A DNA stretch of 64,000 nt from Escherichia coli. Its GTDB lineage: Bacteria > Pseudomonadota > Gammaproteobacteria > Enterobacterales > Enterobacteriaceae. Position 1 is the stretch's first letter. Every line of letters begins with the position of its first letter. The translations under genes were made by a program, and so were the position numbers. The notes under the pieces are model-generated. The model did not search any database. It saw only the letters and a program-made list of their open reading frames with translations, and was not told the DNA's origin. Shown here in pieces: positions 5,028 through 37,726 of this stretch. Where the stretch lies: assembly GCF_001677475.2 (NCBI RefSeq), contig NZ_CP015229.1; one strand, given 5' to 3'.

Positions 5028-5776
5028 AGCGCCAGTGCCAACGTTTTATCATCATCGGTACGCTCGTTTACCGCCGGGCTGGACAAAAACTGCTTTAACA
5101 ATTCAGGTAATAAATCGAGTTGTTCCTGCGTTGCTGACACCAGCCCATTGAAAAACGGGGTAAAGAAAGGCACATGGGGAGAATTATCCAGCATATTTAA
5201 CGCCAGCCGCTGGATACCATCCGTAAATGCTGCAACTTTGTGCGCACGCTCAGTGCTGGTGAAAGTTTCCAGTCTGGAAACCGCATCTTCATCGGTAATG
5301 AAGTGCGTCATGTTGGCATATTCACCCACCATCGGCGTGAGCGGCAGTTGCAGACCGTGCCCCAAATCTACCACCACACCGCCGTCGCCAATCTGCATAA
5401 TCAGGGTGCCATTAGCTGATGAAATCAATCCCAGAAACGTGCAGGCAAAATCGCGAACAGCTAATTCTTTGGCTTCCGCCTCGGCAAAAAGTCGCTGACG
5501 AACGGTCAGCACAATATCCGTTGCGAGGACATCATTGAGCCCCAATTCCCCGCCCTGCACTTTTTGCATCATATAAGCCATCGCTTCATTGACGGCGAGC
5601 ATCGCGCCTTCGCCACCCTGCGAGACGCTACCTGCGCCATCGGCGACAAATACCGACAATAATGGCTGCTGGTCATTTAGCCAGGCAACCTGCATCTGGC
5701 AGGCATCCTGGCAAGGCAAGTCCGCGCTGATGTGCGACGTTCCAACGGTTGATGCATAGACCAGACGCCAGCTCAC
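5015..5776 (-). CDS. pphC: PP2C-family Ser/Thr protein phosphatase
   Basis: 253-aa ORF with VADGAGS and IGDGG metal-binding motifs typical of PP2C; its stop overlaps the yegI start by 13 nt. Confidence 0.8.
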
Positions 5777-19299: not shown

Positions 19300-20661
19300 A
19301 TGTTTAAACCGGAACTCCTTTCCCCGGCGGGAACGCTGAAAAATATGCGTTACGCTTTCGCTTATGGCGCAGATGCTGTTTATGCGGGCCAGCCGCGTTA
19401 CTCCCTGCGTGTGCGCAACAACGAATTCAACCACGAAAATCTTCAGCTCGGCATCAATGAAGCCCACGCGCTGGGGAAAAAGTTTTATGTCGTGGTCAAC
19501 ATTGCACCGCACAACGCCAAGCTGAAAACTTTTATCCGTGACCTGAAACCGGTGGTGGAAATGGGGCCGGATGCGCTGATTATGTCCGATCCAGGGCTGA
19601 TTATGCTGGTGCGTGAGCACTTCCCTGAAATGCCGATCCATCTCTCGGTACAGGCTAACGCCGTGAACTGGGCGACGGTGAAATTCTGGCAGCAAATGGG
19701 CCTGACCCGCGTGATCCTCTCTCGCGAGCTGTCGCTGGAAGAGATTGAAGAGATCCGCAATCAGGTGCCAGATATGGAGATCGAAATCTTCGTTCACGGC
19801 GCGCTGTGCATGGCCTACTCCGGTCGCTGCCTGCTCTCTGGCTATATCAACAAGCGCGACCCGAACCAGGGCACCTGCACCAACGCCTGCCGCTGGGAGT
19901 ACAACGTCCAGGAAGGGAAAGAAGATGACGTTGGCAACATCGTACACAAGTACGAGCCGATTCCGGTGCAAAATGTTGAGCCGACGCTGGGTATCGGCGC
20001 GCCAACCGACAAAGTGTTTATGATCGAAGAAGCCCAGCGTCCGGGCGAGTATATGACCGCGTTTGAAGATGAGCACGGCACTTACATCATGAACTCGAAA
20101 GATCTGCGCGCCATCGCCCATGTAGAACGCCTGACCAAAATGGGCGTGCATTCGCTGAAAATCGAAGGTCGTACCAAATCTTTCTACTATTGCGCACGCA
20201 CCGCGCAGGTTTACCGTAAAGCTATCGATGACGCCGCTGCGGGCAAACCGTTCGATACCAGCCTGCTGGAAACTCTGGAAGGTCTGGCGCATCGTGGCTA
20301 TACCGAAGGTTTCCTGCGTCGTCATACTCACGACGATTATCAGAACTACGAATACGGTTATTCAGTTTCTGACCGCCAGCAGTTTGTTGGTGAGTTTACC
20401 GGTGAGCGCAAGGGGGACCTCGCGGCGGTAGCGGTGAAAAATAAATTCTCCGTTGGCGACAGCCTGGAGCTGATGACGCCGCAAGGCAACATTAACTTTA
20501 CCCTTGAGCACATGGAAAACGCCAAAGGCGAAGCTATGCCGGTAGCACCAGGCGATGGTTATACTGTGTGGCTCCCGGTGCCGCAGGATCTTGAGCTAAA
20601 TTACGCGCTGCTGATGCGTAATTTCTCCGGGGAAACCACGCGTAACCCCCACGGTAAGTGA
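19300..20661 (+). CDS. yegQ: Peptidase U32-family protein (YegQ; TrhP tRNA U34 hydroxylation factor)
   Basis: 453-aa ORF; U32 family recognised by sequence and by position after yegP. Confidence 0.8.
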   Translation: MFKPELLSPAGTLKNMRYAFAYGADAVYAGQPRYSLRVRNNEFNHENLQLGINEAHALGKKFYVVVNIAPHNAKLKTFIRDLKPVVEMGPDALIMSDPGLIMLVREHFPEMPIHLSVQANAVNWATVKFWQQMGLTRVILSRELSLEEIEEIRNQVPDMEIEIFVHGALCMAYSGRCLLSGYINKRDPNQGTCTNACRWEYNVQEGKEDDVGNIVHKYEPIPVQNVEPTLGIGAPTDKVFMIEEAQRPGEYMTAFEDEHGTYIMNSKDLRAIAHVERLTKMGVHSLKIEGRTKSFYYCARTAQVYRKAIDDAAAGKPFDTSLLETLEGLAHRGYTEGFLRRHTHDDYQNYEYGYSVSDRQQFVGEFTGERKGDLAAVAVKNKFSVGDSLELMTPQGNINFTLEHMENAKGEAMPVAPGDGYTVWLPVPQDLELNYALLMRNFSGETTRNPHGK

Positions 20662-20695
20662 TTAATTTCGATTATTTTTCCCGGATGGAAAATTC

Positions 20696-20711
20696 TTAGA
20701 AACCGATCACA
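20696..20711 (+). promoter_or_regulatory. Putative CRP site upstream of cyaR
   Basis: TTAGAaaccgaTCACA resembles the CRP consensus TGTGA-N6-TCACA and is centred ~42 nt upstream of the cyaR 5' end; candidate -10 tatcat at 20733-20738. Weak left half-site. Confidence 0.4.
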
Positions 20712-20745
20712 TACAGCTGCATTTATTAAGGTTATCATCCGTTTC

Positions 20746-20832
20746 GCTGAAAAACATAACCCATAAAATGCTAGCTGTACCAGGAACCACCTCCTTAGCC
20801 TGTGTAATCTCCCTTACACGGGCTTATTTTTT
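20746..20832 (+). ncRNA. cyaR: CyaR (RyeE) Hfq-dependent sRNA
   Basis: gctgaaaaacataacccataaaatgctagctgtaccaggaaccacctccttagcctgtgtaatctcccttacacgggcttatttttt matches the CyaR sequence as I recall it, including the terminal hairpin and U-tail. Confidence 0.85.
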
Positions 20833-21160
20833 ATGCATAAGCCCTATCCCTGATAACCGTCTTCCATTGACCACATCGATAGAATCCCCCTTCATAGCAC
20901 GATGCCTTTCACTTAACGGCATCGTGCTCGCCCAGGTTCCGGCTACGCACGGCCAGAACGCGCATGTTTGACGCTTACCAAAAAATGAACCTAAAGCATT
21001 GGAATATTTTTGACATCATTTTCTGATGGCGGCATAGAATAAAAATTCTGCTTTAGTTTCATCTATCTGTTTGTCATTATTACTCACATTCAATAATGGT
21101 GTTGAAGAACATCTATCAGAGATAAAAATGAATGTGTCCATGGTAGTCTTGAATCTATTC

Positions 21161-21478
21161 TCACTCTCCACATTTGAATGTCAGACGAGCGACGCCATGT
21201 AATCCTGCACCTTCTGTCTTCAGGTCAACTATCTGCATTTTTTTGCCCTGAGTAACACAGAAATGGGCTGCATCATTTTTTACTATATTTTCTGCACCAG
21301 AAATTCTGCCCCTGGCTAAAGAAGCTTCGGCTTCGGTGTAGTATTGGTTATCGAGTTTACGCTGAATATTACTTTTATATGCAAGGCCAAATTTACCGAT
21401 ACTTGTCTCATCATTATGCACAGCACAACCAGACATAAGAAAAACACTAATTAATGATATAGCAGCTATCTTGTTCAC
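21161..21478 (-). CDS. yegR: Small lipoprotein YegR
   Basis: Track ORF 21161..21538; GTG at 21478 gives 105 aa starting VNKIAAISLISVFLMSGC (lipobox LMSGC). Start codon choice is inferred. Confidence 0.6.
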   Translation of the reverse strand: MNKIAAISLISVFLMSGCAVHNDETSIGKFGLAYKSNIQRKLDNQYYTEAEASLARGRISGAENIVKNDAAHFCVTQGKKMQIVDLKTEGAGLHGVARLTFKCGE

Positions 21479-21894
21479 CTCACCTTCCCCCATTAAATAC
21501 CAACGACACTCTCTAGTGTTTAAATATAATAATGGCATGATTATTATAATTGAATAGGATTATAATAAATATTCTGTACAACATTTCCTACATAAGTAGG
21601 AATTACGGACATGGAGGCCCTTCCGGGTAACTCCATGGGGGGCTTTAATATATTTTGAATAGTATATTGAAGATGCCACTGTTTAGTTGAATTATTAGGT
21701 ATATGCTCTTTTTTGAAATTTATCGGTAGCTGCCGTTAGTATTCGCTGTCCCCATTGCAAGCTCCTGGTGGTAACCACTGAATCCTCCATACTTGAACTG
21801 ACTTTTTATCCTCCGACTTTCATCCTGTTCTGACTCCACCTTTTCTTTTCTGCTCTACACTATCTACAGACCAATCATAAAGGCACATACGATC

Positions 21895-22794
21895 ATGGCA
21901 GAATTTCCCGCCAGCTTACTGATTCTTAATGGCAAAAGTACTGACAATTTACCATTGCGCGAAGCAATTATGCTTTTGCGTGAGGAAGGAATGACGATCC
22001 ATGTGCGGGTCACCTGGGAGAAAGGTGATGCCGCACGATTTGTAGAGGAGGCCCGGAAGTTGGGCGTCGCAACGGTGATTGCCGGTGGTGGCGATGGCAC
22101 CATTAATGAAGTTTCTACGGCGTTGATTCAGTGTGAGGGGGATGACATACCCGCGCTGGGAATTTTGCCATTAGGAACCGCCAATGATTTTGCCACCAGT
22201 GTAGGGATTCCTGAGGCACTGGATAAGGCACTGAAACTGGCAATTGCCGGTAACGCCATTGCAATAGATATGGCGCAGGTCAACAAACAAACCTGTTTTA
22301 TTAATATGGCGACAGGCGGGTTTGGGACGCGTATTACCACAGAAACGCCGGAAAAATTAAAAGCCGCGCTGGGTGGCGTCTCTTACATCATTCATGGCTT
22401 AATGCGTATGGATACTCTGCAACCGGACCGTTGTGAAATCCGCGGTGAAAACTTTCACTGGCAAGGTGACGCCCTGGTCATTGGTATTGGTAACGGGCGT
22501 CAGGCCGGTGGCGGTCAACAATTGTGCCCGAACGCGTTAATTAACGATGGCTTGCTGCAACTGCGCATTTTTACCGGCGATGAAATTCTTCCGGCTCTCG
22601 TATCAACCTTAAAATCTGACGAAGATAACCCGAATATTATCGAAGGCGCTTCGTCGTGGTTTGATATACAAGCCCCACACGAAATCACTTTTAATCTTGA
22701 TGGCGAACCGTTGAGTGGGCAAAACTTCCATATTGAAATACTTCCGGCGGCGTTACGTTGTCGATTACCACCAGATTGTCCATTATTGCGTTAA
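21895..22794 (+). CDS. yegS: Lipid kinase YegS (DAG-kinase catalytic domain family)
   Basis: 299-aa ORF with GGDGT motif ([13 protein letters not shown]). Confidence 0.85.
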
Positions 22795-22828
22795 TCAAAC
22801 TATTCTTTCTTGAACCAGGGAGAATCCG

Positions 22829-22863
22829 TAATGCCGGATGCGGTGTAAACACCTTATCCGGCA
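22829..22863. repeat. REP-like palindromic element
   Basis: gccggatgcggtgtaaacaccttatccggc palindrome between convergent yegS and gatR. Confidence 0.5.
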
Positions 22864-22875
22864 TACAGAACAATA

Positions 22876-23655
22876 CTACACCGTAATTAATTTTACCCGT
22901 GTCTTCTGCAATGCCAGTTTATCCACCTCTGACACAGCATCATCGGTAATAATAATGTCGATTTTTTCGATTGGCAGTACCTGATTAAAACCACGACGGT
23001 TAAATTTCGATGAATCGAGAACGGCAATCACTTTATTAGCGGCGGTGACCATCGCCCCGCTAATCGAATAACCTTCATTAAAGGTCGTAATACCATTAAC
23101 CGCATCAATACCATCAGCACCGACAAACATTAAATCGGCATTAATATCCTGCAATGAACGCTCGGCAATGGAACCATGCATCGAGCGCGTTTTATGGCGG
23201 ACGGTGCCACCACAGACGACCAGAGTAATGTCTTTATTTTCGGAAAGGGCAAACGCTGCCGGGAGACTATTGGTAATCACCGTGATATTTTTGGCGGTCA
23301 TTAATCCTTCAGCGATAAGCATCGTCGTACTTCCGCTGTCGAGAATAACGGTCATCCCTTCGTGGATCATTTTGACTGCCGCCTGCGCTATTCTGTTTTT
23401 TGGCGCGCTGGCGAGCTGAAATCGCTCTTTAAACCCGACTTCCTGGGTCTCGATTTCACTATTACCAGACATTATTTTCGCCGCACCGCCATGAAAGCGC
23501 GTAACCACGCCTTTTTGTTCGAGAAAGCGCAAATCGGCACGGATTGTCGCTTCCGAGGCAGCAAATACTCCCGCCAGATCCTGAACAAGCACGGTTCCCT
23601 GTTCATTCACTAATTGGATGATCTTATTCCTTCGCTCGAATGAATTCATCGTCAT
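22876..23655 (-). CDS. gatR: DeoR-family repressor of the galactitol operon (intact)
   Basis: 259-aa uninterrupted ORF with N-terminal HTH and C-terminal sugar-phosphate-binding domain; last gene of the gat cluster. Confidence 0.8.
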   Translation of the reverse strand: MTMNSFERRNKIIQLVNEQGTVLVQDLAGVFAASEATIRADLRFLEQKGVVTRFHGGAAKIMSGNSEIETQEVGFKERFQLASAPKNRIAQAAVKMIHEGMTVILDSGSTTMLIAEGLMTAKNITVITNSLPAAFALSENKDITLVVCGGTVRHKTRSMHGSIAERSLQDINADLMFVGADGIDAVNGITTFNEGYSISGAMVTAANKVIAVLDSSKFNRRGFNQVLPIEKIDIIITDDAVSEVDKLALQKTRVKLITV

Positions 23656-23754
23656 TTACCCATATTCAATTGTGGCTAGTGTAAACGAAGGGGGACCATT
23701 GGTGAATGATCTGTTTTGCACAATACCGGGCCAGCATCACGCTGGCCCGCGGTT

Positions 23755-24795
23755 TCAGGGAATGAGCAACACTTTGCCCGGCATAGCATTACGAGCGATG
23801 TCACGCACCGCCTGGGCGAAGCATTCAAAGCTTCCACTGTGAGCGATTAATGGCTCCAGGCTTAACTTACGCTCTGTCAGCAACCGGCTCGCCGTTTCCC
23901 ACTCCTGCCCCGGCCAAGGGCTGGAGTAGTTCATCCAACTGCCGATAACCGTCAGCTCTTTACGCAATATTTTGCCAAACGTTGCCGATGTTAAATGCAG
24001 ATCCTGATGCAATGTGCCCACCAGCGCCAGTTGGGCATGAGGACCGGCAATCTCTACCGCCAGTTCGACGGTTTGCGGGACGCCAGCCGTCTCGAGGATA
24101 AGCTGATTAAAGCGCAGCTCGCGTAAAACGCCCTGCATTTGCGGCGCGCTCATTTCGCTACTGTTAAATGTTTGCATCGCACCGAAAGATTTTGCCAGTG
24201 CCAGTTTTTCTGAGCTAATGTCGATAGCCGTCACACTCTTTGCTCCCAGCGCGACAGCGCACTGAATGGCCAGCAGGCCAATGGTTCCGGCACCAATAAT
24301 AATAACGTTTTTATTCTCACAACCTTGCGCTAAATGAAAAGCATGCAGGCCAACGGTAATCGGTTCAATAAAAGCCCCATCCTCAATAGGCATGTCCGCA
24401 GGTAGAGCAAAGACATTTTTCCGCTTAACGACAATATATTCGGCAAATCCACCATCACGCCGTGAGCCAATAAAATCATATTTTGCGCACTGGGAATAAA
24501 ACCCTTTCAGACACTCTGGACAAGTAAAACAGGGTAATAACGGTACACAGGCAACCGCATCGCCAGGGTGTAAATCATCAACACCGGATCCCACCGCATC
24601 AATATAGCCGCTAAATTCATGGCCTAACGTTATTGGATAATAATGTGCACCATTTTTAAATATCCTGGGTAAATCGGAACCACATAAGCCCGAGCTGGCA
24701 ATTTTTACCCGCACCTCATCCTGATGTTTAATTTCAGGAATGACGCTTTCTGCAACGCGCACGATACCATCAGTATCATTCACCACTGATTTCAT
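23755..24795 (-). CDS. gatD: Galactitol-1-phosphate 5-dehydrogenase (Zn-dependent ADH family)
   Basis: 346-aa ORF with GHEFSG zinc-ADH motif and GAGTIG Rossmann motif. Confidence 0.9.
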   Translation of the reverse strand: MKSVVNDTDGIVRVAESVIPEIKHQDEVRVKIASSGLCGSDLPRIFKNGAHYYPITLGHEFSGYIDAVGSGVDDLHPGDAVACVPLLPCFTCPECLKGFYSQCAKYDFIGSRRDGGFAEYIVVKRKNVFALPADMPIEDGAFIEPITVGLHAFHLAQGCENKNVIIIGAGTIGLLAIQCAVALGAKSVTAIDISSEKLALAKSFGAMQTFNSSEMSAPQMQGVLRELRFNQLILETAGVPQTVELAVEIAGPHAQLALVGTLHQDLHLTSATFGKILRKELTVIGSWMNYSSPWPGQEWETASRLLTERKLSLEPLIAHSGSFECFAQAVRDIARNAMPGKVLLIP

Positions 24796-24842
24796 AAAAA
24801 CTCCTGATTGTTAAGGGGGATAACCTCCCCCTCAGGTAAAAA

Positions 24843-26198
24843 TTATTCTGCGAGAACGGCTTTCTCTTGTTTAATAAAACCACGCGCTCTACGCCAGGTC
24901 ATGAAAATACCGGTCAGATAAATTGCGCCGATAATAATGAAACCGGGAATATTTTGCGGGGAGAAAACCTGAATCAGTAACCAGGTAATGGGAGAACCGC
25001 CCTGATCCATTGAAGCCACCATACCCCCGGCTTTTAACGCCCCAGCATTAGCCGCCAGTTGGGTGTGCAAACCAATAGTTTGCGTCGCGATCCACAGAGT
25101 GATGCTCATGATGATGACACCCGAGATTAAGGTGCGGAACAGATTTCCACGATGCACCGCGACCGCCATCGCCACGAAGAAGCCGATGGTGGCAAGGTCG
25201 CCAAACGGCAGCACCTGATTACCCGGCACACAAACAGCAATTAAAATGGTGAGTGGAATAAAAATCAGGCTTGCCGATACCACCGCCGTATGTCCCAGCA
25301 GCAACGCCGGATCAAGTCCAATCAGGAACTCCTGACCGCCGAACTTCGCCTGTAAACGGCTACGCGCCTGCTTAGCGATGGGCGTTAAACCATCCATGAT
25401 GGGTTTAATCACCCGCGGCATCAGCAGCATAACTGCCGCCGTTTTTACCGCCAGTTGCAATACACCTTTGACATCGTAACCCGCGAGGATGCCGATAATC
25501 AGCCCCATCACAAAACCCACGGTGACCGGTTCGCCAAAAGGACCAAATTTGCGCTGAATATCATCGGCGCTAAATTTAATTCGGTTAACGCCTGGAATTT
25601 TCTCGATGATAGCATCGACCAGCACCGCGATTGGCCCCATATACGCCGACGTACCGTGCGGAATGGCAATGCCTTCCAGCTCAAAGAAATTTCGGGTATC
25701 GCGGGCAAACCAGTCGCCGAGCTTATAAACAAACGCCGCGTGAATTACCACACCCACCATCCCTATCATCCATGAACCGGTTGCCAGATGCAGCAACGCG
25801 CCGGTGAAGGTCATATGCCAGATATTCCAGATATCAACATTTACCACCCGCGTCATACGGGTCAGTAACATCGCCACGTTAACCAGAATCGCAATCGGAA
25901 TCGCCACCAGCGCAATTTGCGACGCCCAGGTCATTGGTGAAGAGCCCGGCCAGCCGACATCGACCACATGCAGATTCAGGTCGAAATTTTCCGCCATCGC
26001 TTTCGCCGCAGGGCCAATGGAATCCAGCATTAAGCCAATCACAAGGCCAATGCCAACAAAGCCAATCCCGATATGCAGACCCGCTTTAAAGCAATCGCCT
26101 GCCTTCATGCCTAATATTTTAGAAAAAATAATGATGACAATCGGCAGCATCACCGTAGGGCCGAGGTCGAGAATATAACGCATGACTTCTGAAAACAT
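24843..26198 (-). CDS. gatC: Galactitol PTS EIIC component
   Basis: 451-aa polytopic membrane ORF within the gat operon. Confidence 0.9.
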   Translation of the reverse strand: MFSEVMRYILDLGPTVMLPIVIIIFSKILGMKAGDCFKAGLHIGIGFVGIGLVIGLMLDSIGPAAKAMAENFDLNLHVVDVGWPGSSPMTWASQIALVAIPIAILVNVAMLLTRMTRVVNVDIWNIWHMTFTGALLHLATGSWMIGMVGVVIHAAFVYKLGDWFARDTRNFFELEGIAIPHGTSAYMGPIAVLVDAIIEKIPGVNRIKFSADDIQRKFGPFGEPVTVGFVMGLIIGILAGYDVKGVLQLAVKTAAVMLLMPRVIKPIMDGLTPIAKQARSRLQAKFGGQEFLIGLDPALLLGHTAVVSASLIFIPLTILIAVCVPGNQVLPFGDLATIGFFVAMAVAVHRGNLFRTLISGVIIMSITLWIATQTIGLHTQLAANAGALKAGGMVASMDQGGSPITWLLIQVFSPQNIPGFIIIGAIYLTGIFMTWRRARGFIKQEKAVLAE

Positions 26199-26201
26199 AG
26201 G

Positions 26202-26486
26202 TCACCCCTGTAAGATAGTCAGAATTTTATTTTGTAATGCTTCGATACCGACACCAGAAACAAAAGGCATGCCGTGAACTAACGGAATATCGCCAAAACT
26301 ACGGTCAACTTTGGCGGTAGTACATATCAAATGCACGCCATCCATATAGGTCTCTATTTCATTAACCCGACACTGGATTAATTCAACAGGAATATTATGA
26401 CTCTGACACAACTCTTTAATTTCTTCCGCCGCCATCGTGGAGGTCGCAACCGCGCCTCCGCAAGCGACAATAATCTTGCGTTTCAT
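26202..26486 (-). CDS. gatB: Galactitol PTS EIIB component
   Basis: 94-aa ORF with active-site Cys motif [11 protein letters not shown]. Confidence 0.9.
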
Positions 26487-26516
26487 AAATAGTCCTTTTT
26501 ATTGTTACAGAGGGAT

Positions 26517-26969
26517 TTATTCGTCTGAATCTAAAACATACTTTGTGAAGTATTCCTTTAACTGGGTTTCAGGAAGAGTGATTAGTGTCTCGACGATATC
26601 GGGCTGTTGTAACTTGCCAAATAAACAGCGTAAAAGTTTCAATTGCTGCTGCGGATTTTCCACAATTAACGCAATAACCAACGATACCGCCACGTCGTTA
26701 TCATCATCCGCTTGCTGAAAATGAACTTTATTTGTTGGCCTTAACAGATAAATGGCTGACGACTTAGCATGAATCGCCTCACAATGCGGTATTGCAATGG
26801 CGTGCTGCTCAAGCATTATCCCGGTAGGGAATTCTGCTTCTCTGGCAATTAATGCCTGTGGCCAGGTATCATGAACCACACCTTTCGCGAGCATCTCATT
26901 ACCAATATGGGTTAAAACTTCGCTACGATCGGCAAAAGAAATTCCGCTACGAACAAACAGGTTAGTCAT
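26517..26969 (-). CDS. gatA: Galactitol PTS EIIA component
   Basis: 150-aa ORF, position and size match gatA. Confidence 0.9.
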   Translation of the reverse strand: MTNLFVRSGISFADRSEVLTHIGNEMLAKGVVHDTWPQALIAREAEFPTGIMLEQHAIAIPHCEAIHAKSSAIYLLRPTNKVHFQQADDDNDVAVSLVIALIVENPQQQLKLLRCLFGKLQQPDIVETLITLPETQLKEYFTKYVLDSDE

Positions 26970-26978
26970 ATACCATCC

Positions 26979-28241
26979 TTATTCCGCACAGCCGTAGCAA
27001 TAGGCGCGCAAAACATCATAAATTTTATCCATAATCAGCTGATGCGGTATTGCTGATAATTCCCCGGACTGAATGCGTTCAAATTGTTTGGGAAGATACT
27101 GACTAATCATGCCCAGTGGGATGTCCACGCCTTGCAGATTCACCATCATCGTTTCAACGCTATTTTTAATCCGACTATGCGGCCAGTAATAACGAATACG
27201 ATCCGACAGGCTGTAACGAATATCCAGTAATGAATCGTTAAAACCCGTACGATAATATTTTTTCCAGTATTGCGGTTCGTCGAGCATCACTTCTTCAATT
27301 ACCGCCAGGCAACCGCTGCGATTTTCGGGGGCGATAAGTTCCTGCTCAATTTGTGCCAGCGCAAATATCGCCTCACGTAAAGCAAAGGTTAATGCTGGCC
27401 CTACTTTCAAAATTGCAAAGTGATCGCGGACTAATTCCCAATAAGCCGTCCGGGTCTGGTAATCGGTGGAATGTGCTTCATAAACCATTTTGCTGTTTTC
27501 TATCCATTGCGCCAGCGCCTGCGCTTCTTGCGGCTGATAATGGATAATATTGCTGTGATCAAATTCAACGCCAGGCTGTACCACTATCGCAATCACGCGC
27601 GTTAACGCCTCTGTCAGGCCACGGGCAATAAACGCTTTTTGATGTGTGCGTAAAGTATTGGCAGCATCTTCTACCTTTGTGATGTGCACCGACTGAATGG
27701 CGCTGGCCTCACCGCCCGGAACCGGAACTTCGGTGCCAATCACATAAGTCAGTTGTTCACGCTGGTCATCTGTCGCCACGCTTTCCGCAGCAAAGCAAAG
27801 TACAGCGGCACGTTCAGCTACCGTTTCTGGCGCTAACGGTACAGGATCACCCGCACAGGACATTGACGCATCAAGATGAATTTTACTGAAACCGGCACGA
27901 ACATATGCCTTTACCAGCTCGACGGATTTTTCCATCGCCGCATCCGCATTTTCTTGCTGCCAGCAGTTTGGCCCCAGATGATCACCGCCGAGAATAATGC
28001 GCTCGCGCGCAAACCCAACTCTATCGGCAATCGCAAAAACAAATTCGCGAAAATCTGCCGGTGTCATTCCGGTATAACCGCCAAATTGATTGACCTGGTT
28101 TGACGTTGCTTCAATCAGCACTTTGCGTGTGCTGTTGAGATCGAAAGCCAGCGCCGCTTCAATAACCAACGGATGCGCCGAACAGACTGAACAAATTCCG
28201 ATATGTTCACCGGCTTTATGCCGGGCAATTAACGTTTTCAT
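26979..28241 (-). CDS. gatZ: Tagatose-bisphosphate aldolase non-catalytic subunit
   Basis: 420-aa ORF between gatA and gatY. Confidence 0.9.
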
Positions 28242-28269
28242 GGTTTTTCCTTGTTAAATGGCAGATGCG

Positions 28270-29178
<909 letters not shown>

Positions 29179-29285
29179 TTAAATGTCGAGGTAACGATCA
29201 CAAAAACGACAATTCGAAAATTAATCAGAATGACAGGCAAAAAAACGGCCTCCCGATAGGGAAGCCGTAGCAAAGTGCGCGTGTT

Positions 29286-29432
<147 letters not shown>

Positions 29433-29441
29433 TAAAACGTA

Positions 29442-30494
29442 TCAGGCGATAGTAATTTTGCTATCAAGATAAACGTCCTGCACGGCGTTAATCAGTTTCA
29501 CGCCGTCGGCCATCGATTTCTTGAACGCTTTACGTCCGAGGATCAGCCCCATTCCGCCTGCGCGTTTGTTGATAACCGCAGTACGCACCGCATCGCTAAG
29601 GTCAGTTTCACCGCCCGCAGCACCACCGGAGTTAATCAACCCTGCGCGCCCCATATAGCAGTTAGCTAACTGATAACGCACCAGATCAATCGGGTTTTCG
29701 CTGGTCAGCTTGCTGTACACGCGATCGTCGGTGTAGCCGTAATTAATCGCTTTATAGCCACCGTTATTTTCCGCCATTTTCTGTTTGACGATGTCCGCGC
29801 CAATGGTCGCCGCCAGATGGTTCGCCTGACCGGTCAGGTCGGCGGAAACGTGGTAATCAACGCCCTCTTTCTTAAAGGCGGAATTACGCAAATAGGCCCA
29901 CAGCACGGTCACCATGCCCAGTTCATGCGCACGTTCAAAGGCCGCAGAAATTTCTTCAATCTGGCGACGTGACTCTTCCGAGCCAAAATAGATAGTCGCA
30001 CCAACCGCCACCGCGCCCATGTTGAACGCCTGCTCCACGCTGGCATACAGCGTTTGATCGTAGGTATTCGGGTAACTTAGCGTCTCGTTGTGATTAAGTT
30101 TGACGAGGAATGGAATGCGATGCGCGTAACGCCGCGATACCGACGCCAGCACGCCGTAAGTTGACGCCACACAGTTACAGCCCGCTTCGATCGCCAATTC
30201 AACAATGTTTTTCGGGTCAAAGTAGAGCGGGTTAGCGGCAAATGAAGCTCCGGCAGAGTGCTCAACGCCCTGGTCAACGGGCAGAATAGAAAGATATCCT
30301 GTGCCAGCCAGACGCCCGGTGTTGTACAACGTCTGCATATTACGTAACACCGCAGGCGGGCGATTATTGTCAATCATCACGCGGTCTACGTAGTCATGTC
30401 CGGGGAGATAAAGCTGGTCAGAAGGAATAGTCATACAACGGTGCTGTAAAAGGTTGTCGGCGTCTTTGCCAAGCAACTGCGCAATATCTGTCAT
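29442..30494 (-). CDS. fbaB: Fructose-bisphosphate aldolase class I
   Basis: Track ORF 29442..30566; ATG at 30494 gives 350 aa starting [16 protein letters not shown]. Confidence 0.85.
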
Positions 30495-30750
30495 TACTAT
30501 GCTCCCGTAAATTCCGATTGGATATCGGCTATGGATTGTCCTGGCCCGCCTTTTGCGGGCAATCATAATCCTGGTCGTTACAGGCGAGTTTTTCCATCTT
30601 TTGGATGTTTTTTCAGCGTTTTCTGTTGGCTCGATTCATCAGAAAAAATGTTACCGCGGTCAAGTATTCACCGCAAAGGTATTTAAAAGGTATTATTAAA
30701 TGGTATTGTCATCGCGTACCTTACATTACCTGTCATGAAGGAATTAAAAG

Positions 30751-32028
30751 ATGAAAACAACAGCAAAGCTGTCGTTCATGATGTTTGTTGAATGGTTTAT
30801 CTGGGGCGCGTGGTTTGTGCCATTGTGGTTGTGGTTAAGTAAAAGCGGTTTTAGTGCCGGAGAAATTGGCTGGTCGTATGCCTGTACCGCCATTGCGGCG
30901 ATCCTGTCGCCAATTCTGGTTGGCTCCATCACTGACCGCTTTTTCTCGGCGCAGAAAGTGCTGGCGGTATTGATGTTCGCTGGTGCGGCGCTGATGTATT
31001 TCGCTGCGCAACAGACCACTTTTGCCGGGTTCTTCCCGTTACTGCTGGCCTACTCGCTAACCTATATGCCGACCATTGCGCTGACTAACAGCATCGCTTT
31101 TGCCAACGTGCCGGATGTGGAGCGTGATTTCCCACGCATTCGTGTGATGGGCACTATCGGCTGGATTGCCTCCGGTCTGGCATGTGGATTTTTGCCGCAA
31201 ATGCTGGGGTATGCCGATATCTCACCGACTAACATCCCGCTGCTGATTACCGCCGGAAGTTCTGCTCTGCTCGGTGTGTTTGCGTTTTTCCTGCCCGACA
31301 CGCCGCCAAAAAGCACCGGCAAAATGGACATTAAAGTCATGCTCGGCCTGGATGCGCTGATCCTGCTGCGCGATAAAAACTTCCTCGTCTTTTTCTTCTG
31401 TTCATTCTTGTTTGCGATGCCACTGGCGTTCTATTACATCTTTGCCAACGGTTATCTGACCGAAGTCGGCATGAAAAACGCCACCGGCTGGATGACGCTC
31501 GGCCAGTTCTCTGAAATCTTCTTTATGCTGGCATTGCCGTTTTTCACTAAACGCTTTGGTATCAAAAAGGTATTATTGCTTGGTCTGGTCACCGCTGCGA
31601 TCCGCTATGGCTTCTTTATTTACGGTAGTGCGGATGAATATTTCACCTACGCGTTACTGTTCCTCGGTATTTTGCTGCACGGCGTAAGTTACGATTTTTA
31701 CTATGTTACCGCTTACATCTATGTCGATAAAAAAGCCCCCGAGCATATGCGTACCGCTGCGCAGGGGCTGATCACGCTCTGCTGCCAGGGCTTCGGCAGT
31801 TTGCTCGGCTATCGTCTTGGCGGTGTGATGATGGAAAAGATGTTCGCTTATCCGGAACCGGTAAACGGACTGACTTTCAACTGGGCCGGGATGTGGACTT
31901 TTGGCGCGGTGATGATTGCCATTATCGCCGTGCTGTTCATGATTTTTTTCCGCGAATCCGACAACGAAATTACGGCTATCAAGGTCGATGATCGCGATAT
32001 TGCGTTGACACAAGGGGAAGTTAAATGA
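30751..32028 (+). CDS. yegT: Nucleoside:H+ symporter-family (NupG/XapB-like) transporter
   Basis: 425-aa polytopic membrane ORF; family recognised by sequence. Confidence 0.8.
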   Translation: MKTTAKLSFMMFVEWFIWGAWFVPLWLWLSKSGFSAGEIGWSYACTAIAAILSPILVGSITDRFFSAQKVLAVLMFAGAALMYFAAQQTTFAGFFPLLLAYSLTYMPTIALTNSIAFANVPDVERDFPRIRVMGTIGWIASGLACGFLPQMLGYADISPTNIPLLITAGSSALLGVFAFFLPDTPPKSTGKMDIKVMLGLDALILLRDKNFLVFFFCSFLFAMPLAFYYIFANGYLTEVGMKNATGWMTLGQFSEIFFMLALPFFTKRFGIKKVLLLGLVTAAIRYGFFIYGSADEYFTYALLFLGILLHGVSYDFYYVTAYIYVDKKAPEHMRTAAQGLITLCCQGFGSLLGYRLGGVMMEKMFAYPEPVNGLTFNWAGMWTFGAVMIAIIAVLFMIFFRESDNEITAIKVDDRDIALTQGEVK

Positions 32029-33029
32029 AAACAGAACGTATTCTCGGTGCTCTTTATGGGCAGGCGTTAGGGGATGCGATGGGGATGCCCTCCGAGCTTT
32101 GGCCACGCAGCCGCGTTAAAGCACACTTTGGCTGGATTGACCGTTTTCTGCCTGGACCAAAAGAGAATAACGCGGCCTGTTATTTTAACCGCGCCGAATT
32201 CACCGACGATACCTCGATGGCACTGTGTCTGGCGGATGCGTTACTGGAACGTGAAGGCAAGATCGATCCGAATCTGATTGGGCGTAATATTCTCGACTGG
32301 GCGCTGCGTTTCGACGCCTTTAACAAAAACGTACTAGGTCCGACCTCGAAGATTGCTCTCAACGCCATTCGCGACGGTAAACCCGTTGCTGAACTGGAAA
32401 ACAACGGCGTGACCAACGGCGCAGCGATGCGCGTCTCGCCATTAGGCTGTTTGCTTCCGGCGCGTGATGTTGATTCCTTTATTGATGATGTGGCGCTGGC
32501 GTCCAGCCCGACCCATAAATCCGATCTGGCAGTTGCAGGTGCGGTAGTCATCGCATGGGCGATTTCTCGTGCCATTGACGGAGAAAGCTGGTCAGCGATT
32601 GTTGATTCACTGCCTTCAATTGCGCGACATGCACAGCAAAAACGCATCACTACCTTCAGCGCATCACTGGCAGCACGTCTGGAGATTGCGCTGAAAATTG
32701 TGCGCAATGCCGACGGCACTGAATCCGCCAGCGAACAGCTTTACCAGGTCGTTGGCGCAGGTACCAGCACTATTGAGTCCGTTCCGTGCGCCATTGCGCT
32801 GGTTGAACTGGCACAAACCGACCCGAATCGCTGCGCCGTCCTGTGCGCTAACCTTGGCGGCGACACAGACACCATCGGTGCTATGGCGACGGCGATTTGC
32901 GGCGCGTTGCATGGCGTTAAGGCTATCGATCCTACGTTAAAGGCGGAACTGGATGCGGTAAATCAGCTTGATTTCAACCGCTATGCCACAGCGTTGGCGA
33001 AATATCGTCAACAACGGGAGGCGGTATGA
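32025..33029 (+). CDS. yegU: ADP-ribosylglycohydrolase-family protein
   Basis: 334-aa ORF overlapping yegT stop; N-terminal GALYGQALGDAMGMP and C-terminal GGDTDTIGAMA motifs typical of the ARH/DraG family. Confidence 0.75.
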   Translation: MKTERILGALYGQALGDAMGMPSELWPRSRVKAHFGWIDRFLPGPKENNAACYFNRAEFTDDTSMALCLADALLEREGKIDPNLIGRNILDWALRFDAFNKNVLGPTSKIALNAIRDGKPVAELENNGVTNGAAMRVSPLGCLLPARDVDSFIDDVALASSPTHKSDLAVAGAVVIAWAISRAIDGESWSAIVDSLPSIARHAQQKRITTFSASLAARLEIALKIVRNADGTESASEQLYQVVGAGTSTIESVPCAIALVELAQTDPNRCAVLCANLGGDTDTIGAMATAICGALHGVKAIDPTLKAELDAVNQLDFNRYATALAKYRQQREAV

Positions 33030-33991
33030 GCGGCGCTCGATTACACACGCTGCTGCCTGAATTAACCACGCGTCAGCCAGTTATGGTGATTGGCGCGGCG
33101 GTCATTGATGTGATCGCCGACGCTTATGCCCTCCCCTGGCGTGGGTGCGATATCGAACTGAAACAGCAGAGCGTTAACGTTGGCGGCTGCGCCCTGAATA
33201 TTGCCGTGGCGTTAAAACGCCTCGGCATCGAAGCGGGTAACGCCTTGCCGCTCGGTCAGGGCGTGTGGGCGGAGATTATTCGCAACCGGATGGCAAAAGA
33301 GGGCTTAATCAGCCTGATCGATAACGCCGAAGGTGATAACGGCTGGTGTCTGGCGCTGGTTGAGCCGGATGGCGAACGCACTTTTATGTCATTCAGCGGT
33401 GTGGAAAATCAGTGGAATCTCCAGTGGCTGGCGCGATTAACCGTTGCGCCTGGCAGCCTGCTCTATTTTTCCGGTTATCAACTGGCCTCGCCCTGCGGCG
33501 AATTGTTAGTGGAATGGCTGGAAGAGCTGCAAGACGTGACGCTGTTTATCGATTTTGGCCCACGTATTGGCGATATCCCGGATGCATTACTGGCGCGGCT
33601 CATGGCCTGTCGACCTTTAGTGTCACTTAATCGTCAGGAGGCTGAGATTGCCGCCGAACGTTTTGCTTTATCCGCAGAGATAACAACACTTGGCAAGCAA
33701 TGGCAGGAGAAATTTGCCGCGCCGTTGATCGTTCGTCTCGATAAAGAAGGCGCATGGTATTTCAGCAACGACGCTTCTGGCTGCATTCCGGCATTTCCAA
33801 CGCAAGTTGTAGACACCATTGGGGCGGGCGACAGTCATGCAGGTGGCGTACTTGCCGGGCTGGCCTCTGGTCTGCCACTGGCGGATGCCGTATTACTGGG
33901 CAATGCAGTGGCGTCGTGGGTTGTCGGGCATCGGGGCGGTGATTGTGCGCCAACGCGCGAGGAACTACTCCTCGCACACAAAAACGTATAG
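33026..33991 (+). CDS. yegV: PfkB-family sugar/nucleoside kinase
   Basis: 321-aa ORF overlapping yegU stop; DTIGAGDSHAGG motif near the C-terminus typical of ribokinase-family kinases. Confidence 0.75.
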   Translation: MSGARLHTLLPELTTRQPVMVIGAAVIDVIADAYALPWRGCDIELKQQSVNVGGCALNIAVALKRLGIEAGNALPLGQGVWAEIIRNRMAKEGLISLIDNAEGDNGWCLALVEPDGERTFMSFSGVENQWNLQWLARLTVAPGSLLYFSGYQLASPCGELLVEWLEELQDVTLFIDFGPRIGDIPDALLARLMACRPLVSLNRQEAEIAAERFALSAEITTLGKQWQEKFAAPLIVRLDKEGAWYFSNDASGCIPAFPTQVVDTIGAGDSHAGGVLAGLASGLPLADAVLLGNAVASWVVGHRGGDCAPTREELLLAHKNV

Positions 33992-34711
33992 ATCGCTGCG
34001 ACAGTGGCTAATGCTGTACTCAATAGGCCGTTGCTGTTGGTCAAGCGCCACTTGCTTGATCACCAGCACCGGTATTTTGCTATCTAACTGAATATGTGAC
34101 TGAAACTCGGCATCCGGCATCCGGGCGCTAACGCGGGAACGCGTACGTTGTGGGTAAATGTGCTGGCTGCGGAAATAGTCATAAAGAGAAATTCCGATGG
34201 CATCAACATCATGAATTAAATGCGCCGGAACCCACGATTCCTCAATCGATACCGCTTCTTCATCGACATAGCGAATACGCTTAAGCAAAAAGACATCACT
34301 TCCCGCTTCGACCGCCAGCTGCTGCGCGACTTCTTCGGGACATTTCACGACACGCTTGTTAACCCATAACGTATCGGGCTTTTTCCCGCGCAATACCACC
34401 TGCTGAGAAAAACCTCGCGCTTCTTTCAACGAGTATTCGAAGATGTTGTTGATCTGCGTGCCGTAACCACGCGAACGCGTCACCACACCCTCTTCTTCCA
34501 GCACCTGCATCGCCTTGCGCACCGTAATGCGCGAAACGCCGGTTAACTGACTTAAATCACGCTCACCGGGCAAAATATTGCCATGCTCCAGCACCCCGCT
34601 GCGCACGGCATTTTTTACCGTTTCGGCAAACTTGATATAAAGCGGCGTGTTATCCGTCGCTAAAATACGCTCGTTCAGTTGGGCAATCAGCTGGGTATGC
34701 GCTTGTTCCAT
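33965..34711 (-). CDS. yegW: GntR-family transcriptional regulator (UTRA effector domain)
   Basis: 248-aa ORF with N-terminal winged HTH (LPGERDLSQLTGVSRITVRKA); 3' end overlaps convergent yegV by 27 nt. Confidence 0.8.
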   Translation of the reverse strand: MEQAHTQLIAQLNERILATDNTPLYIKFAETVKNAVRSGVLEHGNILPGERDLSQLTGVSRITVRKAMQVLEEEGVVTRSRGYGTQINNIFEYSLKEARGFSQQVVLRGKKPDTLWVNKRVVKCPEEVAQQLAVEAGSDVFLLKRIRYVDEEAVSIEESWVPAHLIHDVDAIGISLYDYFRSQHIYPQRTRSRVSARMPDAEFQSHIQLDSKIPVLVIKQVALDQQQRPIEYSISHCRSDLYVFVCEE

Positions 34712-34762
34712 TTGTCTTTTTCCTGCCGGGGAGTCTGGTGGGAGTATATCACTGCTTCTTAT

Positions 34763-35581
34763 TTAAGGCGTTTCTTTAATCCCATCAACGAATGCCTGCA
34801 ACTCCTCCGCCGTGCCATTAAACACATTAAAATCCACCGGACCATTGATGCCATCTACCTGTCCACGGTCGGAATGCTGCCAGAAGCGCCAGGCCATTCC
34901 GTCATTGTCCGGACGACGTTGATAATAGTGAGCCACCCACCACGGATATTCATTGAAATAGCCCGCCAGATTCGAGTGATAAAAAACGGCTCCTGAGTAA
35001 ATAATCGGCTTTTTTCCCGTGCGTTTTTCGACCATTTTTAGCCACTGACTTACCCGCTTGCGTAATTCTTTTGCCGATAATTTTCCCCGTTCTTCTACGT
35101 CCAGCACGGCAGGGAGATCGCCGTGGGCAAAATCCACCGTTTGCAGAAATAATCGCGCCTGAACTGAAGCGGATACCGACGGGGACAAATAATGATACGC
35201 CCCGCGCAGCAGGCCATTTTCGCGGCTTAGTTGCCAGTTACGCGAAAAATAGGGGTCCACCAGCTTTTCGCCTTCCGTCGCCTTGATAAAGGCAAACTGC
35301 AAGCGAATACCGTTATCGCGCATTTTTGCCACCCGCTGCCAGTCGATTCGCTCCTGCCAGCGTGAAACATCAATACCATGAATGGTGTAACTGGCAGGAA
35401 TGCGAATAGCAAAAGATTTGACCGGACGATAACCGTAGAAGTGGATGTAGTCTTTAATCTGAATTGCTGTCGAGTAGAAAAAATTCACCGTCTGACGCGG
35501 ATAAATTGCAACGATGGAAATTAGCCCAAGAGCGCATAATAAAGCGGTGAATTTTTTTCGACTGGTGATTCTTAGCTGCAT
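34763..35581 (-). CDS. yegX: Glycoside hydrolase family 25 (lysozyme-like) protein
   Basis: Track ORF 34763..35590; GH25-like sequence with N-terminal signal/anchor. Start codon uncertain (35581 or 35590). Confidence 0.7.
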   Translation of the reverse strand: MQLRITSRKKFTALLCALGLISIVAIYPRQTVNFFYSTAIQIKDYIHFYGYRPVKSFAIRIPASYTIHGIDVSRWQERIDWQRVAKMRDNGIRLQFAFIKATEGEKLVDPYFSRNWQLSRENGLLRGAYHYLSPSVSASVQARLFLQTVDFAHGDLPAVLDVEERGKLSAKELRKRVSQWLKMVEKRTGKKPIIYSGAVFYHSNLAGYFNEYPWWVAHYYQRRPDNDGMAWRFWQHSDRGQVDGINGPVDFNVFNGTAEELQAFVDGIKETP

Positions 35582-35645
35582 TGGTTTCATCCCTGAATGT
35601 CAGCGCCAAAGACTGACAATAACCAAAGCAGCTATAGTAAGGTGC

Positions 35646-36446
35646 TCACCACCACGCGTGGAAGTGGTGAACCGGACCAATACCGTGACCAACTTCCAGC
35701 GTGTCGGCCTGGGCTAACGCCGATGAAAGCCAGCTTTTTGCCTCCTGTACGGTGTCAGCCCAGTTTGTATGGCGCGGGCGTAGTGCAGCCAACGCCGCAG
35801 AGAGCGTACAACCAGTGCCGTGGGTGTTTTTGGTCATAATGCGCGGTGCAGTAAATCGTTGTTCCCCCTCACGAGTAAACAGCCAGTCCGGGCTTTGCTC
35901 ATCATCCAGATGACCACCTTTCATTAGCACTGCGCCACAGCCCATCGCCAACAGCGATCGCCCTTGTTCCAGCATTTCCTGTTCGGTGCGCGCGTGTGGC
36001 GCGTCGAGCAAGGCGGCAGCTTCGGGCAAGTTTGGCGTTATTAATGAAACCTGTGGCAATAATCGACTGCGCAGCGTAGCAACCGCCGAAGGTGAAAGCA
36101 GCGGGTCGCCGCTTTTTGCCAGCATAACGGTATCAAGTACCACGTTTTTGATCTGATAACGTTGCAACCTTTCTGCCACCGCTTCAACAATATCGGTTTC
36201 CGCCAACATACCGATTTTAGTGGTGTCGATTCGCACATCGCTGAACACCGAATCGAGCTGGGCGGCGACAAAATCAGGCTCAATGCGATACACCGACTGT
36301 ACGCCACGGGTATTTTGCGCCACTAGTGCAGTAATAACTGAGCAACCATAAGCGCCAAGTGCCGAGAAGGTTTTAAGATCGGCCTGAATCCCCGCACCAC
36401 CACTCGGATCAGTACCGGCAATCGTCAGAGCGTTAATTCGTTTCAT
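35646..36446 (-). CDS. thiD: Hydroxymethylpyrimidine/phosphomethylpyrimidine kinase
   Basis: 266-aa ORF, ribokinase-like fold motifs ([12 protein letters not shown]); overlaps thiM stop. Confidence 0.9.
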
Positions 36447-37231
36447 GCCTGCACCTCCGGCGTCAATTGCCAGAGCGCATCAAGGAAATGTGGAACAAAA
36501 CTGCCTGGCCCCTCGCTTCTGGCGACTGCGCGTTCTCCGGCTTGTTTCATCCAGTGACAGGCAGATGCGGCATTTCCCAGCGTATCGCCTGGTAACGCAC
36601 TACAGGCAGCGACAACCGCCGATAATGCACAGCCAGTTCCCACCACTTTGGTCATTAACGGATCGCCGCCGTGAATGCCAACGGTGCGACGACCATCGGT
36701 AACATAATCCACCTCGCCAGTGACCACGACGATTGCGCCAGTTTCCCGTGCCAGTGTTTGTGCAGCGGGTATCGCATTAGCTACGGCGTCAGTGGTATCC
36801 ACTCCCCGTCCACCATTAGCAACGCCAGCTAATGCCATGATTTCCGAAGCATTACCACGTATGGCGGTTGGCTTATGAGACAGAAGTTCCAGACAAAAAC
36901 GGCGGCGATAGTCGAGTGCACCAACCGCAACCGGATCAAGCGTCCAGGGTGTTTGAGAGCTTTTTGCTTGCTCAACGGCGGCACGCATCGCCTGTGCGCG
37001 TGGCTGCGTCAGTGTGCCAACGTTAATCAGCAACGCACTGGCGATGGCCGCAAACTGACTGGCCTCTTCGGTTTCGATAACCATCGCTGGCGATGCACCA
37101 AGCGCCAGCAAGGTATTAGCAGTAAAGGTTTGCACCACATCGTTGGTCATGCAGTGCACAAGAGGGGAATGTTGGTGAAAAAGGTGTAACGTGTGCGCAG
37201 ATTGCGCGGAACTCAGCAGGTCGACTTGCAT
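36443..37231 (-). CDS. thiM: Hydroxyethylthiazole kinase
   Basis: 262-aa ORF immediately downstream of a TPP riboswitch. Confidence 0.9.
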
Positions 37232-37239
37232 AGTTTGCT

Positions 37240-37400
37240 CCTGCCATAACGTGAAGAAGCAATGACCTGGTGGTCCGTGACTTCCCTACGCTGGCATTAT
37301 CCAGATCAGGTGATACGGGTATTTCTCAGCCTTCACGCAGAAGGGCACCCCGAGTCGTTTGGTTGCGATGATAAATCGCAGAGGAGGATGGTAATGTCCA
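37240..37400 (-). promoter_or_regulatory. TPP (THI-box) riboswitch in the thiM leader
   Basis: Minus-strand sequence ...ggggtgcccttctgcgtgaaggctgagaaatacccgtatcacctgatctggataatgccagcgtagggaag... matches the thiM TPP aptamer (CUGAGA and conserved helices), at ~37281-37357. Confidence 0.85.
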
Positions 37401-37453
37401 GCGCACGCGTTGTAAACGAGGAAAAACCGCAGTTTTACAATCGCGTTAATAAA

Positions 37454-37726
37454 TTATTTGATATATGAATCCAGCACCTTCAGAACGACATCCAGATCTT
37501 CTTCACGTTTTAGCTCATCCCCCTGGTGAACGATGTGTTCCGTCAGATGACCTTTAATCACTTCCCGCATCAGACCGTTTACCGCGCCACGGATAGCTGC
37601 AATCTGTTGTAAAACTGCAGCGCATTCGTGCGGCTCGTCGAGCATTTTCTTGAGCGCCACGACCTGGCCCTGAATCTTACTGGCACGCGCTTTCAGTTTC
37701 TGTTTATCACGGATTGTATGAGACAT
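37454..37726 (-). CDS. rcnR: Ni/Co-responsive transcriptional repressor (CsoR/RcnR family)
   Basis: 90-aa ORF, divergent from rcnA. Confidence 0.85.

Follow-up and report, generated by a model that had tools for sequence, protein, structure and literature searches.

The 3' ends of two convergent genes, yegV and yegW, share coding nucleotides in the Escherichia coli DNA analysed here (referred to as the window, a stretch of 64,000 nucleotides), and the question raised by this locus is whether the shared nucleotides serve to couple the expression of a repressor to that of the operon it controls, or whether they are kept for the two proteins that they encode. An earlier note on this DNA had described a 27-nt overlap between a regulator and its likely target operon, had argued that the two transcripts must be mutually antisense at their 3' ends, and had suggested transcriptional interference or RNase III-dependent coupling as a possible consequence. 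The best-supported answer, to which we assign a probability of roughly 0.7, is that this is a genuine and ancient dual-coding tail-to-tail overlap, kept by purifying selection at the protein level and not by any demonstrated regulatory need.

The gene yegV (33026..33991, plus strand) encodes a 321-aa sugar kinase of the PfkB family and is the last gene of yegTUV, as judged from the open reading frame, Pfam and RefSeq. The convergent gene yegW, also named ggaR (33965..34711, minus strand), encodes a 248-aa GntR/HutC-type repressor of yegTUV, as judged from the open reading frame, Pfam, protein structures and published work (PMC10819704). The two upstream operon genes, yegT (30751-32028) and yegU (32025-33029), are both on the plus strand and their transcription converges on ggaR, and yegX (34763..35590, minus strand) is the next gene upstream of ggaR, in the same orientation, with a 51-nt gap between the two. 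The dual-coding segment occupies 33965..33991 on both strands, and its length and position as first described are exact according to the list of open reading frames and both stop codons in the sequence. It contains the yegV codons L314-V321 plus stop and the yegW codons L241-E248 plus stop. The TAG stop codon of yegV (33989..33991) is the reverse complement of the Leu241 codon CTA of yegW, and the TAG stop codon of yegW (33965..33967, read as cta on the plus strand) is the reverse complement of the Leu314 codon CTA of yegV. Codon boundaries coincide throughout the overlap, with yegV positions 1, 2 and 3 opposite yegW positions 3, 2 and 1, an arrangement denoted phase (123:321) in the notation of PMC2174442.

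The same 27-nt overlap is present in the RefSeq annotation of E. coli strain JNE151685 and likewise in that of K-12 MG1655 (yegV 2181096-2182061, yegW 2182035-2182781); over a stretch of 107 nt spanning the overlap, the window does not differ from K-12. Of 5426 complete E. coli genomes, 5423 carry the 161-nt junction region, 5206 of them with at least 99% identity. Outside the junction, the identity of the window to complete E. coli genomes is no more than about 97%. The yegV-yegW overlap, being already annotated in the reference genome and catalogued as an excludon, is real, ancient, ordinary and known.

Given that long convergent overlaps in databases are often misannotations caused by 3' extension (PMC2478687), the overlap could in principle be an annotation artefact in which one of the two tails is untranslated and no true coding overlap exists. 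The choice of start codon is irrelevant to a 3' overlap, however, and both stops are fixed by the sequence. Both proteins are also recognizable up to or into the shared segment. YegW matches the Pfam families GntR and UTRA (E=2.3e-36 for the latter), and the UTRA match extends to residue 242 of 248, which places the YegW tail within this domain. The NagR/YvoA structures align with YegW as far as residue 245 (RSDLYVFV versus RGDRYTFV), so that the effector domain takes its final strand from five of the eight YegW codons in the overlap; the complete tail, LYVFVCEE, is nearly invariant and contains this last beta-strand of the UTRA effector domain. YegV matches PfkB at residues 19-309 (E=1.6e-55) and the ribokinase and KDG-kinase structures align with it as far as residues 313-316, indicating that residues 314-321 comprise the last part of the C-terminal helix followed by a short tail. 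This YegV tail, LLLAHKNV, is outside the PfkB core, and its length equals that in orthologues whose genes do not overlap. Both tails are furthermore kept as protein over 76 loci, with signatures of selection in both frames as described below. Conservation, selection in two frames, placement within UTRA and tail length together rule out the artefact, which we consider to have almost no chance of being true.

To what extent the overlap is conserved was determined by taking one genome per species and locating both stop codons at each of 80 loci encoding YegW relatives. One further locus, on a short Trabulsiella contig that ends within yegW, was left unscored. The exact 27-nt overlap was present in 76 of the 80 species-representative Enterobacterales loci, including members of Escherichia, Citrobacter, Klebsiella, Enterobacter, Kluyvera, Raoultella, Pectobacterium, Cedecea and Leminorella (family Budviciaceae) as well as Salmonella diarizonae. 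The four exceptions are all different. In Citrobacter amalonaticus S646 a duplication of about 107 nt includes the overlap together with the yegW 3' end, so that one duplicate ends yegV and the other ends yegW with a resulting gap of 56 nt, and in C. sedlakii a hairpin-bearing insertion of about 96 nt results in a gap of 69 nt. Salmonella arizonae carries a deletion from within yegT to within yegV that leaves yegW intact, and in Yokenella a 1-nt deletion in the overlap causes a frameshift of both genes at once.

Selection on the two reading frames was examined in an ungapped alignment of 77 sequences, using the mean minor-allele fraction per column as the measure of variability. Within the 27 nt, variation is restricted to codon position 3 of yegW, which is position 1 of yegV. 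The variability at yegV wobble positions falls from 0.411 just upstream (19/19 columns variable) to 0.035 in the overlap (1/9), and that at yegW wobble positions from 0.264 outside (18/19 columns variable) to 0.175 inside (6/9). The substitutions observed in the YegV tail (K/E, N/D/H, H/D/Y/N, V/I and A/T) are exactly those that arise from synonymous changes in yegW. In the opposite direction, the codons for E247 and E248 of yegW are GAG in 75 of the 77 sequences, and they are held at GAG because GAA would convert a leucine of YegV to phenylalanine. The stop codons behave in the same manner. The yegV stop is TAG in 55 and TAA in 22 of the sequences and never TGA, the yegW stop is TAA in 44 and TAG in 33, and this alternation between TAG and TAA corresponds to a synonymous CTA/TTA change in the partner gene. 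No TGA stop was found among the 77 aligned sequences; such a stop would put a serine in the partner protein. Both frames are thus under purifying selection, with yegW dominant, and the dual-coding constraint fully accounts for the coding overlap itself.

How surprising the overlap is can be estimated from codon usage. A stop codon in phase (123:321) can arise only opposite a TTA, CTA or TCA codon of the partner gene, and such sense codons make up 8 of the 248 codons of yegW and 13 of the 321 codons of yegV. Simple arithmetic from these counts gives a probability of about 0.77 for an 8-codon overlap once the genes abut, and since only 8 of the 248 yegW codons provide a stop, a run-on of eight codons is unremarkable under that condition. 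In the 50-kb neighbourhood of the locus in K-12, one of six convergent pairs overlaps. What exceeds chance is the conservation of exactly 27 nt in 76 of 80 loci and not the length of the overlap.

More distant orthologous cassettes, obtained by protein search and contig look-ups, all retain the convergent yegTUV/yegW arrangement and differ at the junction. Spacers of +32 nt (Providencia, carrying an A6-stem-loop-T6 element), +67 nt (Yersinia intermedia, carrying a 12-bp hairpin, in a cassette that adjoins an integrase gene) and +242 nt (assembly GCA_000307305.1) were found, as was a long spacer in Budviciaceae BWR-B9, a 14-nt overlap in Pantoea dispersa and, in Aeromonas jandaei, an IS110-flanked copy with a 27-nt overlap. 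The overlap is dispensable, as seen from the spacers of +32, +67 and +242 nt, the 14-nt overlap and the two Citrobacter lineages in which the genes have become un-overlapped.

The orthologues without overlap also suggest how the shared segment may have arisen. In these, YegW likewise has 248 aa and ends in MYVFVSEE where the window has LYVFVCEE, and YegV has the same count of 12 residues after DCAP with a tail of a different type (xxLxxYLxxY). A mutated stop codon followed by 3' extension is not favoured, given that the tail lengths of both proteins equal those of the non-overlapping orthologues. A better fit, as far as can be judged by comparing the sequences, is that an operon and its regulator, already convergent, lost the spacer that separated them, upon which the yegV frame would have run into yegW in antisense up to the first CTA or TTA codon, and a new YegV tail of unchanged length would have been overprinted. 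The yegTUVW cassette is patchily distributed and horizontally mobile, and for this reason the direction of change (loss or gain of the spacer) is uncertain.

With their coding ends shared, the two genes would probably have transcripts that end inside each other. No terminator-like site was predicted in or near the overlap by a terminator scan, no promoter-like site was predicted around the junction, and no Rfam match was found there, the sole match between 30000 and 38500 being the thiM TPP riboswitch. The one structural feature at the junction is a perfect 7-bp inverted repeat, GCGAGGA-actac-TCCTCGC (33957..33975), with the yegW stop codon in its loop. It is more stable than shuffled sequence (fold z -3.0 on the plus strand and -2.2 on the minus strand), and the minus-strand stem-loop has a folding energy of -18.6 kcal/mol in a 51-nt context. 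The hairpin is followed by ACACAAAAACG on the plus strand and GCGUUGGCG on the minus strand, neither of which is a U-tract. An intrinsic or bidirectional terminator at the junction was rejected on these grounds, the scan being empty and the A-run of the hairpin lying on the wrong side for both directions.

Base composition points to another mode of termination. Immediately past the yegW stop, on the strand antisense to yegV, is a C-rich and G-poor candidate Rho-loading region (33887..33964, minus strand) whose 78 nt contain 42% C and 22% G, a C/G ratio of 1.94 compared with a background 95th percentile of 1.73. On the plus strand the first approximately 180 nt past the yegV stop are neutral in composition, and the first strongly C-rich tract (34226..34316, antisense to yegW) is found at +235 to +325 past that stop, where C/G is 2.27-2.45, the highest value being reached at +248 to +325, compared with a 99th percentile of 2.2; this is a candidate Rho-loading site for yegTUV read-through. 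Since no intrinsic terminator fits between the two stops, RNA polymerase from each side would enter the partner gene and would probably be released by Rho once the ribosome has left, as composition suggests. Release would be quick for ggaR, which has its C-rich tract right past its stop, and for yegTUV it would occur some 200-350 nt past the stop. Termination is thus predicted to take place inside the partner gene on both strands, probably in a Rho-dependent manner, and both mRNAs would be obligatorily antisense at their 3' ends. The mutual antisense character proposed in the earlier note holds to this extent, that any transcript reaching its own stop is complementary to the other over 27 nt or more.

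In this setting the inverted repeat at 33957-33975 might act as a protective 3' stem-loop that sets the steady-state end of a Rho-terminated ggaR mRNA. Its stability relative to shuffled sequence (z -2.2 to -3.0) and the lack of U residues after it, with RNA of 42% C and 22% G next on the minus strand, correspond to the layout reported for those E. coli 3' ends that depend on Rho (PMC6061677). The comparative data speak against it, however. No more than 23-24 of the 77 sequences keep all seven pairs, while 50-54 keep at least six of the seven, and in none of the 77 sequences has any pair changed on both sides. Both arms are constrained by coding, the right arm being frozen by yegW and the left arm by the YegV residues R-E-E, and the free wobble position 33961 varies (G47, A16, C9, T5) while its partner remains unchanged. 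In addition, the supplements of a 3'-end map (PMC7815308) list no yegV or yegW 3' end. A selected RNA structure is not favoured, given that no covariation is seen in arms constrained by coding and that full pairing occurs in fewer than a third of the sequences, and the protective stem-loop is kept as a low-confidence rival that we consider doubtful.

Another alternative concerns regulation. That the regulator faces its own target operon, as the earlier note supposed, is borne out by experiment, YegW having been renamed GgaR and identified as a single-target repressor of yegTUV whose repression is released by ADP-glucose (PMC10819704). In that study yegTUV was described as a single 3.3-kb mRNA that was undetectable by Northern blot in the wild type, rose approximately 3-fold with glucose while GgaR remained constant at about 20-30 molecules per cell, and rose approximately 30-fold only when ggaR was deleted (PMC10819704). 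A regulatory excludon with positive feedback can be conceived, in which ADP-glucose inactivates GgaR and strong yegTUV read-through into ggaR then lowers the expression of the repressor (through polymerase collision and/or cleavage of the 3' duplex by RNase III), so that derepression is reinforced.

Several observations are compatible with such feedback. The published catalogue of convergent excludons for E. coli MG1655 has 165 entries, one of them yegV-yegW, which was called from RNA-seq coverage in no fewer than 50% of 58 MG1655 samples (PMC12288877). GgaR is the only repressor of the operon and yegTUV the only target of GgaR, no terminator separates the genes, the first strongly C-rich Rho tract on the yegTUV strand is about 235-325 nt inside ggaR, and the convergent arrangement was kept in all cassettes examined. 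The near-universal presence of the overlap in Enterobacteriaceae may alternatively reflect selection for coupled expression as opposed to the mere difficulty of undoing an overlap. Independently of this feedback, transcription may enter ggaR from further upstream: scans of 33000-35000 and 34600-37600 predicted no sigma-70-like promoter near the ggaR start on the minus strand, no convincing terminators were predicted between thiD, yegX and ggaR, and yegX is a possible source of such transcription.

Against the feedback, the amount of GgaR protein stays constant under the very conditions where yegTUV mRNA rises approximately 3-fold, and with an mRNA that is undetectable in the wild type, collisions should be rare when the operon is repressed. 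The excludon call is based on coverage only and is automatic for overlapping coding sequences, since any coverage of both genes suffices, and according to its authors validation by p19 capture of dsRNA was not feasible for convergent excludons in general (PMC12288877). Neither yegV nor yegW is listed in the supplements of a p19 dsRNA study (PMC7373196); absence from these and from the 3'-end supplements carries little weight, since expression of both genes is low. Moreover, orthologues have spacers of 32-242 nt with hairpins, and two Citrobacter lineages have dropped the overlap. On balance we find the regulatory excludon unlikely. Its furthest extension would be that GgaR and yegTUV form a self-reinforcing switch, in which, after relief of repression by ADP-glucose, yegTUV transcription 200-350 nt into ggaR suppresses production of the repressor (roughly 20 molecules per cell) by collision or RNase III and confers hysteresis or bistability on the commitment to glycogen storage, and this appears unlikely. 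Given that yegTUV is tightly repressed and GgaR is present in only about 20-30 molecules per cell, the mutually antisense 3' ends are most likely a tolerated by-product.

The importance of these findings is limited, the locus being a textbook example, clean and well conserved, of dual coding at overlapping 3' ends. It illustrates how a constrained domain end, the UTRA strand of YegW, dictates which amino-acid changes are permitted in the tail of the partner protein and how the choice of stop codon is narrowed to TAG or TAA, and the Citrobacter duplication and insertion provide natural 'un-overlapping' experiments. A practical consequence is that edits or deletions at the 3' end of either gene affect both. 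In one recoding study the TAG-to-TAA edit of yegV was overwritten by the yegW oligonucleotide (PMC3458525), and a standard ggaR deletion probably also alters the C-terminus of YegV. Were the excludon reading correct, the control of glycogen accumulation would gain an extra layer of feedback, a hypothesis that has already been published in generic terms.

Among known systems, bidirectional intrinsic terminators occupy the same position, at the junction of convergent units, and the spacer of the Providencia orthologue with its A6-stem-loop-T6 shows such an arrangement. The hairpin in the window differs in having no U-tract on either strand and in having an A-run 3' of the stem on the plus strand, so that the combination of a GC-rich hairpin with an upstream A-tract and a downstream U-tract does not occur at the junction. 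The ggaR strand resembles Rho-dependent 3' ends with a protective stem-loop (Dar and Sorek 2018, PMC6061677), in that a stable stem-loop lacking a U-tract is followed by C-rich RNA. In contrast to the ends described there, the ggaR stem shows no covariation and can be explained by the codons of both genes. The features that define such ends at the sequence level, a stem-loop without a U-tract and a C-rich, G-poor tract immediately after it, are found on the minus strand.

The excludon concept is said to originate with Lasa and Cossart, and the mechanism proposed in the earlier note is this published idea. With the excludons mapped by ExcludonFinder (PMC12288877), where the pair itself is listed, yegV-yegW has in common that neighbouring, opposed genes have overlapping transcripts. 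The defining outcomes of an excludon are mutually exclusive expression and processing by RNase III, whereas yegV-yegW was assigned by topology and coverage and the level of GgaR is constant. The overlap is also located in coding sequence, in contrast to excludons that overlap only in their untranslated regions. Adjacent genes on opposite strands are thus present, and none of the functional properties of excludons that could be assessed was observed.

The closest likeness is to conserved convergent overlapping gene pairs in prokaryotes, which Rogozin et al. (2002) are reported to have analysed. As in the pairs described in two surveys (Lillo and Krakauer 2007, PMC2174442; Palleja et al. 2008, PMC2478687), the 3' coding ends are shared, the stop codons derive from TTA/CTA-type codons on the partner strand and both frames are under purifying selection. 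Among convergent overlaps longer than 4 nt in E. coli, about 32% are in phase (123:321) (PMC2174442), and convergent overlaps make up about 7% of overlaps among well-characterised genes (PMC2478687). The long real convergent overlaps that have been surveyed are mostly conserved among very close species only (PMC2478687), whereas the yegV-yegW overlap is short and fixed at 27 nt across several families of Enterobacterales. It further differs from the surveyed overlaps in that the length-matched orthologues without overlap suggest loss of a spacer and overprinting, not mutation of a stop codon. In all features that were examined, yegV and yegW agree with such pairs: both are genuine genes, each stop is located inside the coding sequence of the partner, the overlap is conserved in multiple species and both reading frames are under selection.

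The 107 nt around the 27-nt overlap shared by the 3' coding ends of yegV and yegW (ggaR) at 33965-33991 are identical in the window and in K-12, despite divergence elsewhere. The identity of the window to the best match among 5,426 complete E. coli genomes was about 96.8-97.6% (measured on 20000-32000 and 30001-37300), so that the window belongs to a somewhat divergent Escherichia lineage; for the yegV-yegW stretch the identity to the best complete E. coli genome was 98.9%. Within the yegTUV operon, yegT and yegU overlap by 4 nt (32025-32028) and so do yegU and yegV (33026-33029), both with an ATGA-type stop/start, as is typical of translationally coupled genes inside an operon.

The standard Keio deletion of ggaR (JW2088) presumably leaves no more than the final 21 nt of ggaR in place, and therefore yegV codon 321 and the yegV stop codon should be lost. 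The C-terminus of YegV should thus be altered or extended in JW2088, and this change would be present in the very strain that defined the GgaR phenotypes.

Upstream of ggaR on the minus strand, no convincing terminator was predicted from thiD through yegX to yegW, and because of this read-through into ggaR from the upstream units is conceivable. The minus-strand segment 37266-37362, upstream of thiM, is a TPP riboswitch (Rfam RF00059, 71 bits). The longest yegX ORF (34763-35590, minus strand) encodes 275 aa beginning MKPMQLR, versus 272 aa (819 nt) in RefSeq, and the difference is one of start-codon choice.

The overlap is absent from two Citrobacter loci. In Citrobacter amalonaticus S646 (locus L023, 5151-5450) a duplication of about 107 nt, spanning the overlap and the neighbouring 3' end of yegW, has created a gap of 56 nt between the genes, with the yegV end (REELLFAHGDIQVAATRTQ and stop) in one copy and the yegW end (LYVFVCEE and stop) in the other; here the overlap is resolved naturally through duplication. 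In Citrobacter sedlakii (locus L012, 5151-5450) an insertion of about 96 nt, containing two hairpin-forming repeats, lies between yegV and the yegW stop, giving a 69-nt spacer and a new YegV tail ending in REQLLVSLKR.

In Salmonella enterica subsp. arizonae (locus L026, 5151-5450) a deletion has fused the middle of yegT to yegV at codon ~255 and the yegV remnant carries a frameshift; despite this deletion yegW is intact (90% identity), and a repressor whose only known target is the yegTUV operon thus persists. In Yokenella regensburgei (locus L064, ~5225-5245) a 1-base deletion within the overlap (CTCGCAACAAAAACG versus CTCGCACACAAAAACG) frameshifts the ends of yegV and yegW simultaneously, and could be either a genuine mutation or a sequencing error.

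In Aeromonas jandaei (locus L085) the yegTUV-yegW cassette, with the 27-nt overlap kept, is flanked by IS110-family transposase genes, and in Yersinia intermedia (locus L083) the cassette has a 67-nt spacer and lies near a phage-type integrase gene. These settings suggest that the cassette has moved horizontally.

In Providencia (locus L082, 5248-5279) the 32-nt yegW-yegV spacer contains AGAGAAAAAAGAGgcctagtCTCTTTTTTACTCT. A simple terminator scan made no call on this element; its order of A-tract, stem-loop and T-tract is similar in layout to a bidirectional intrinsic terminator.
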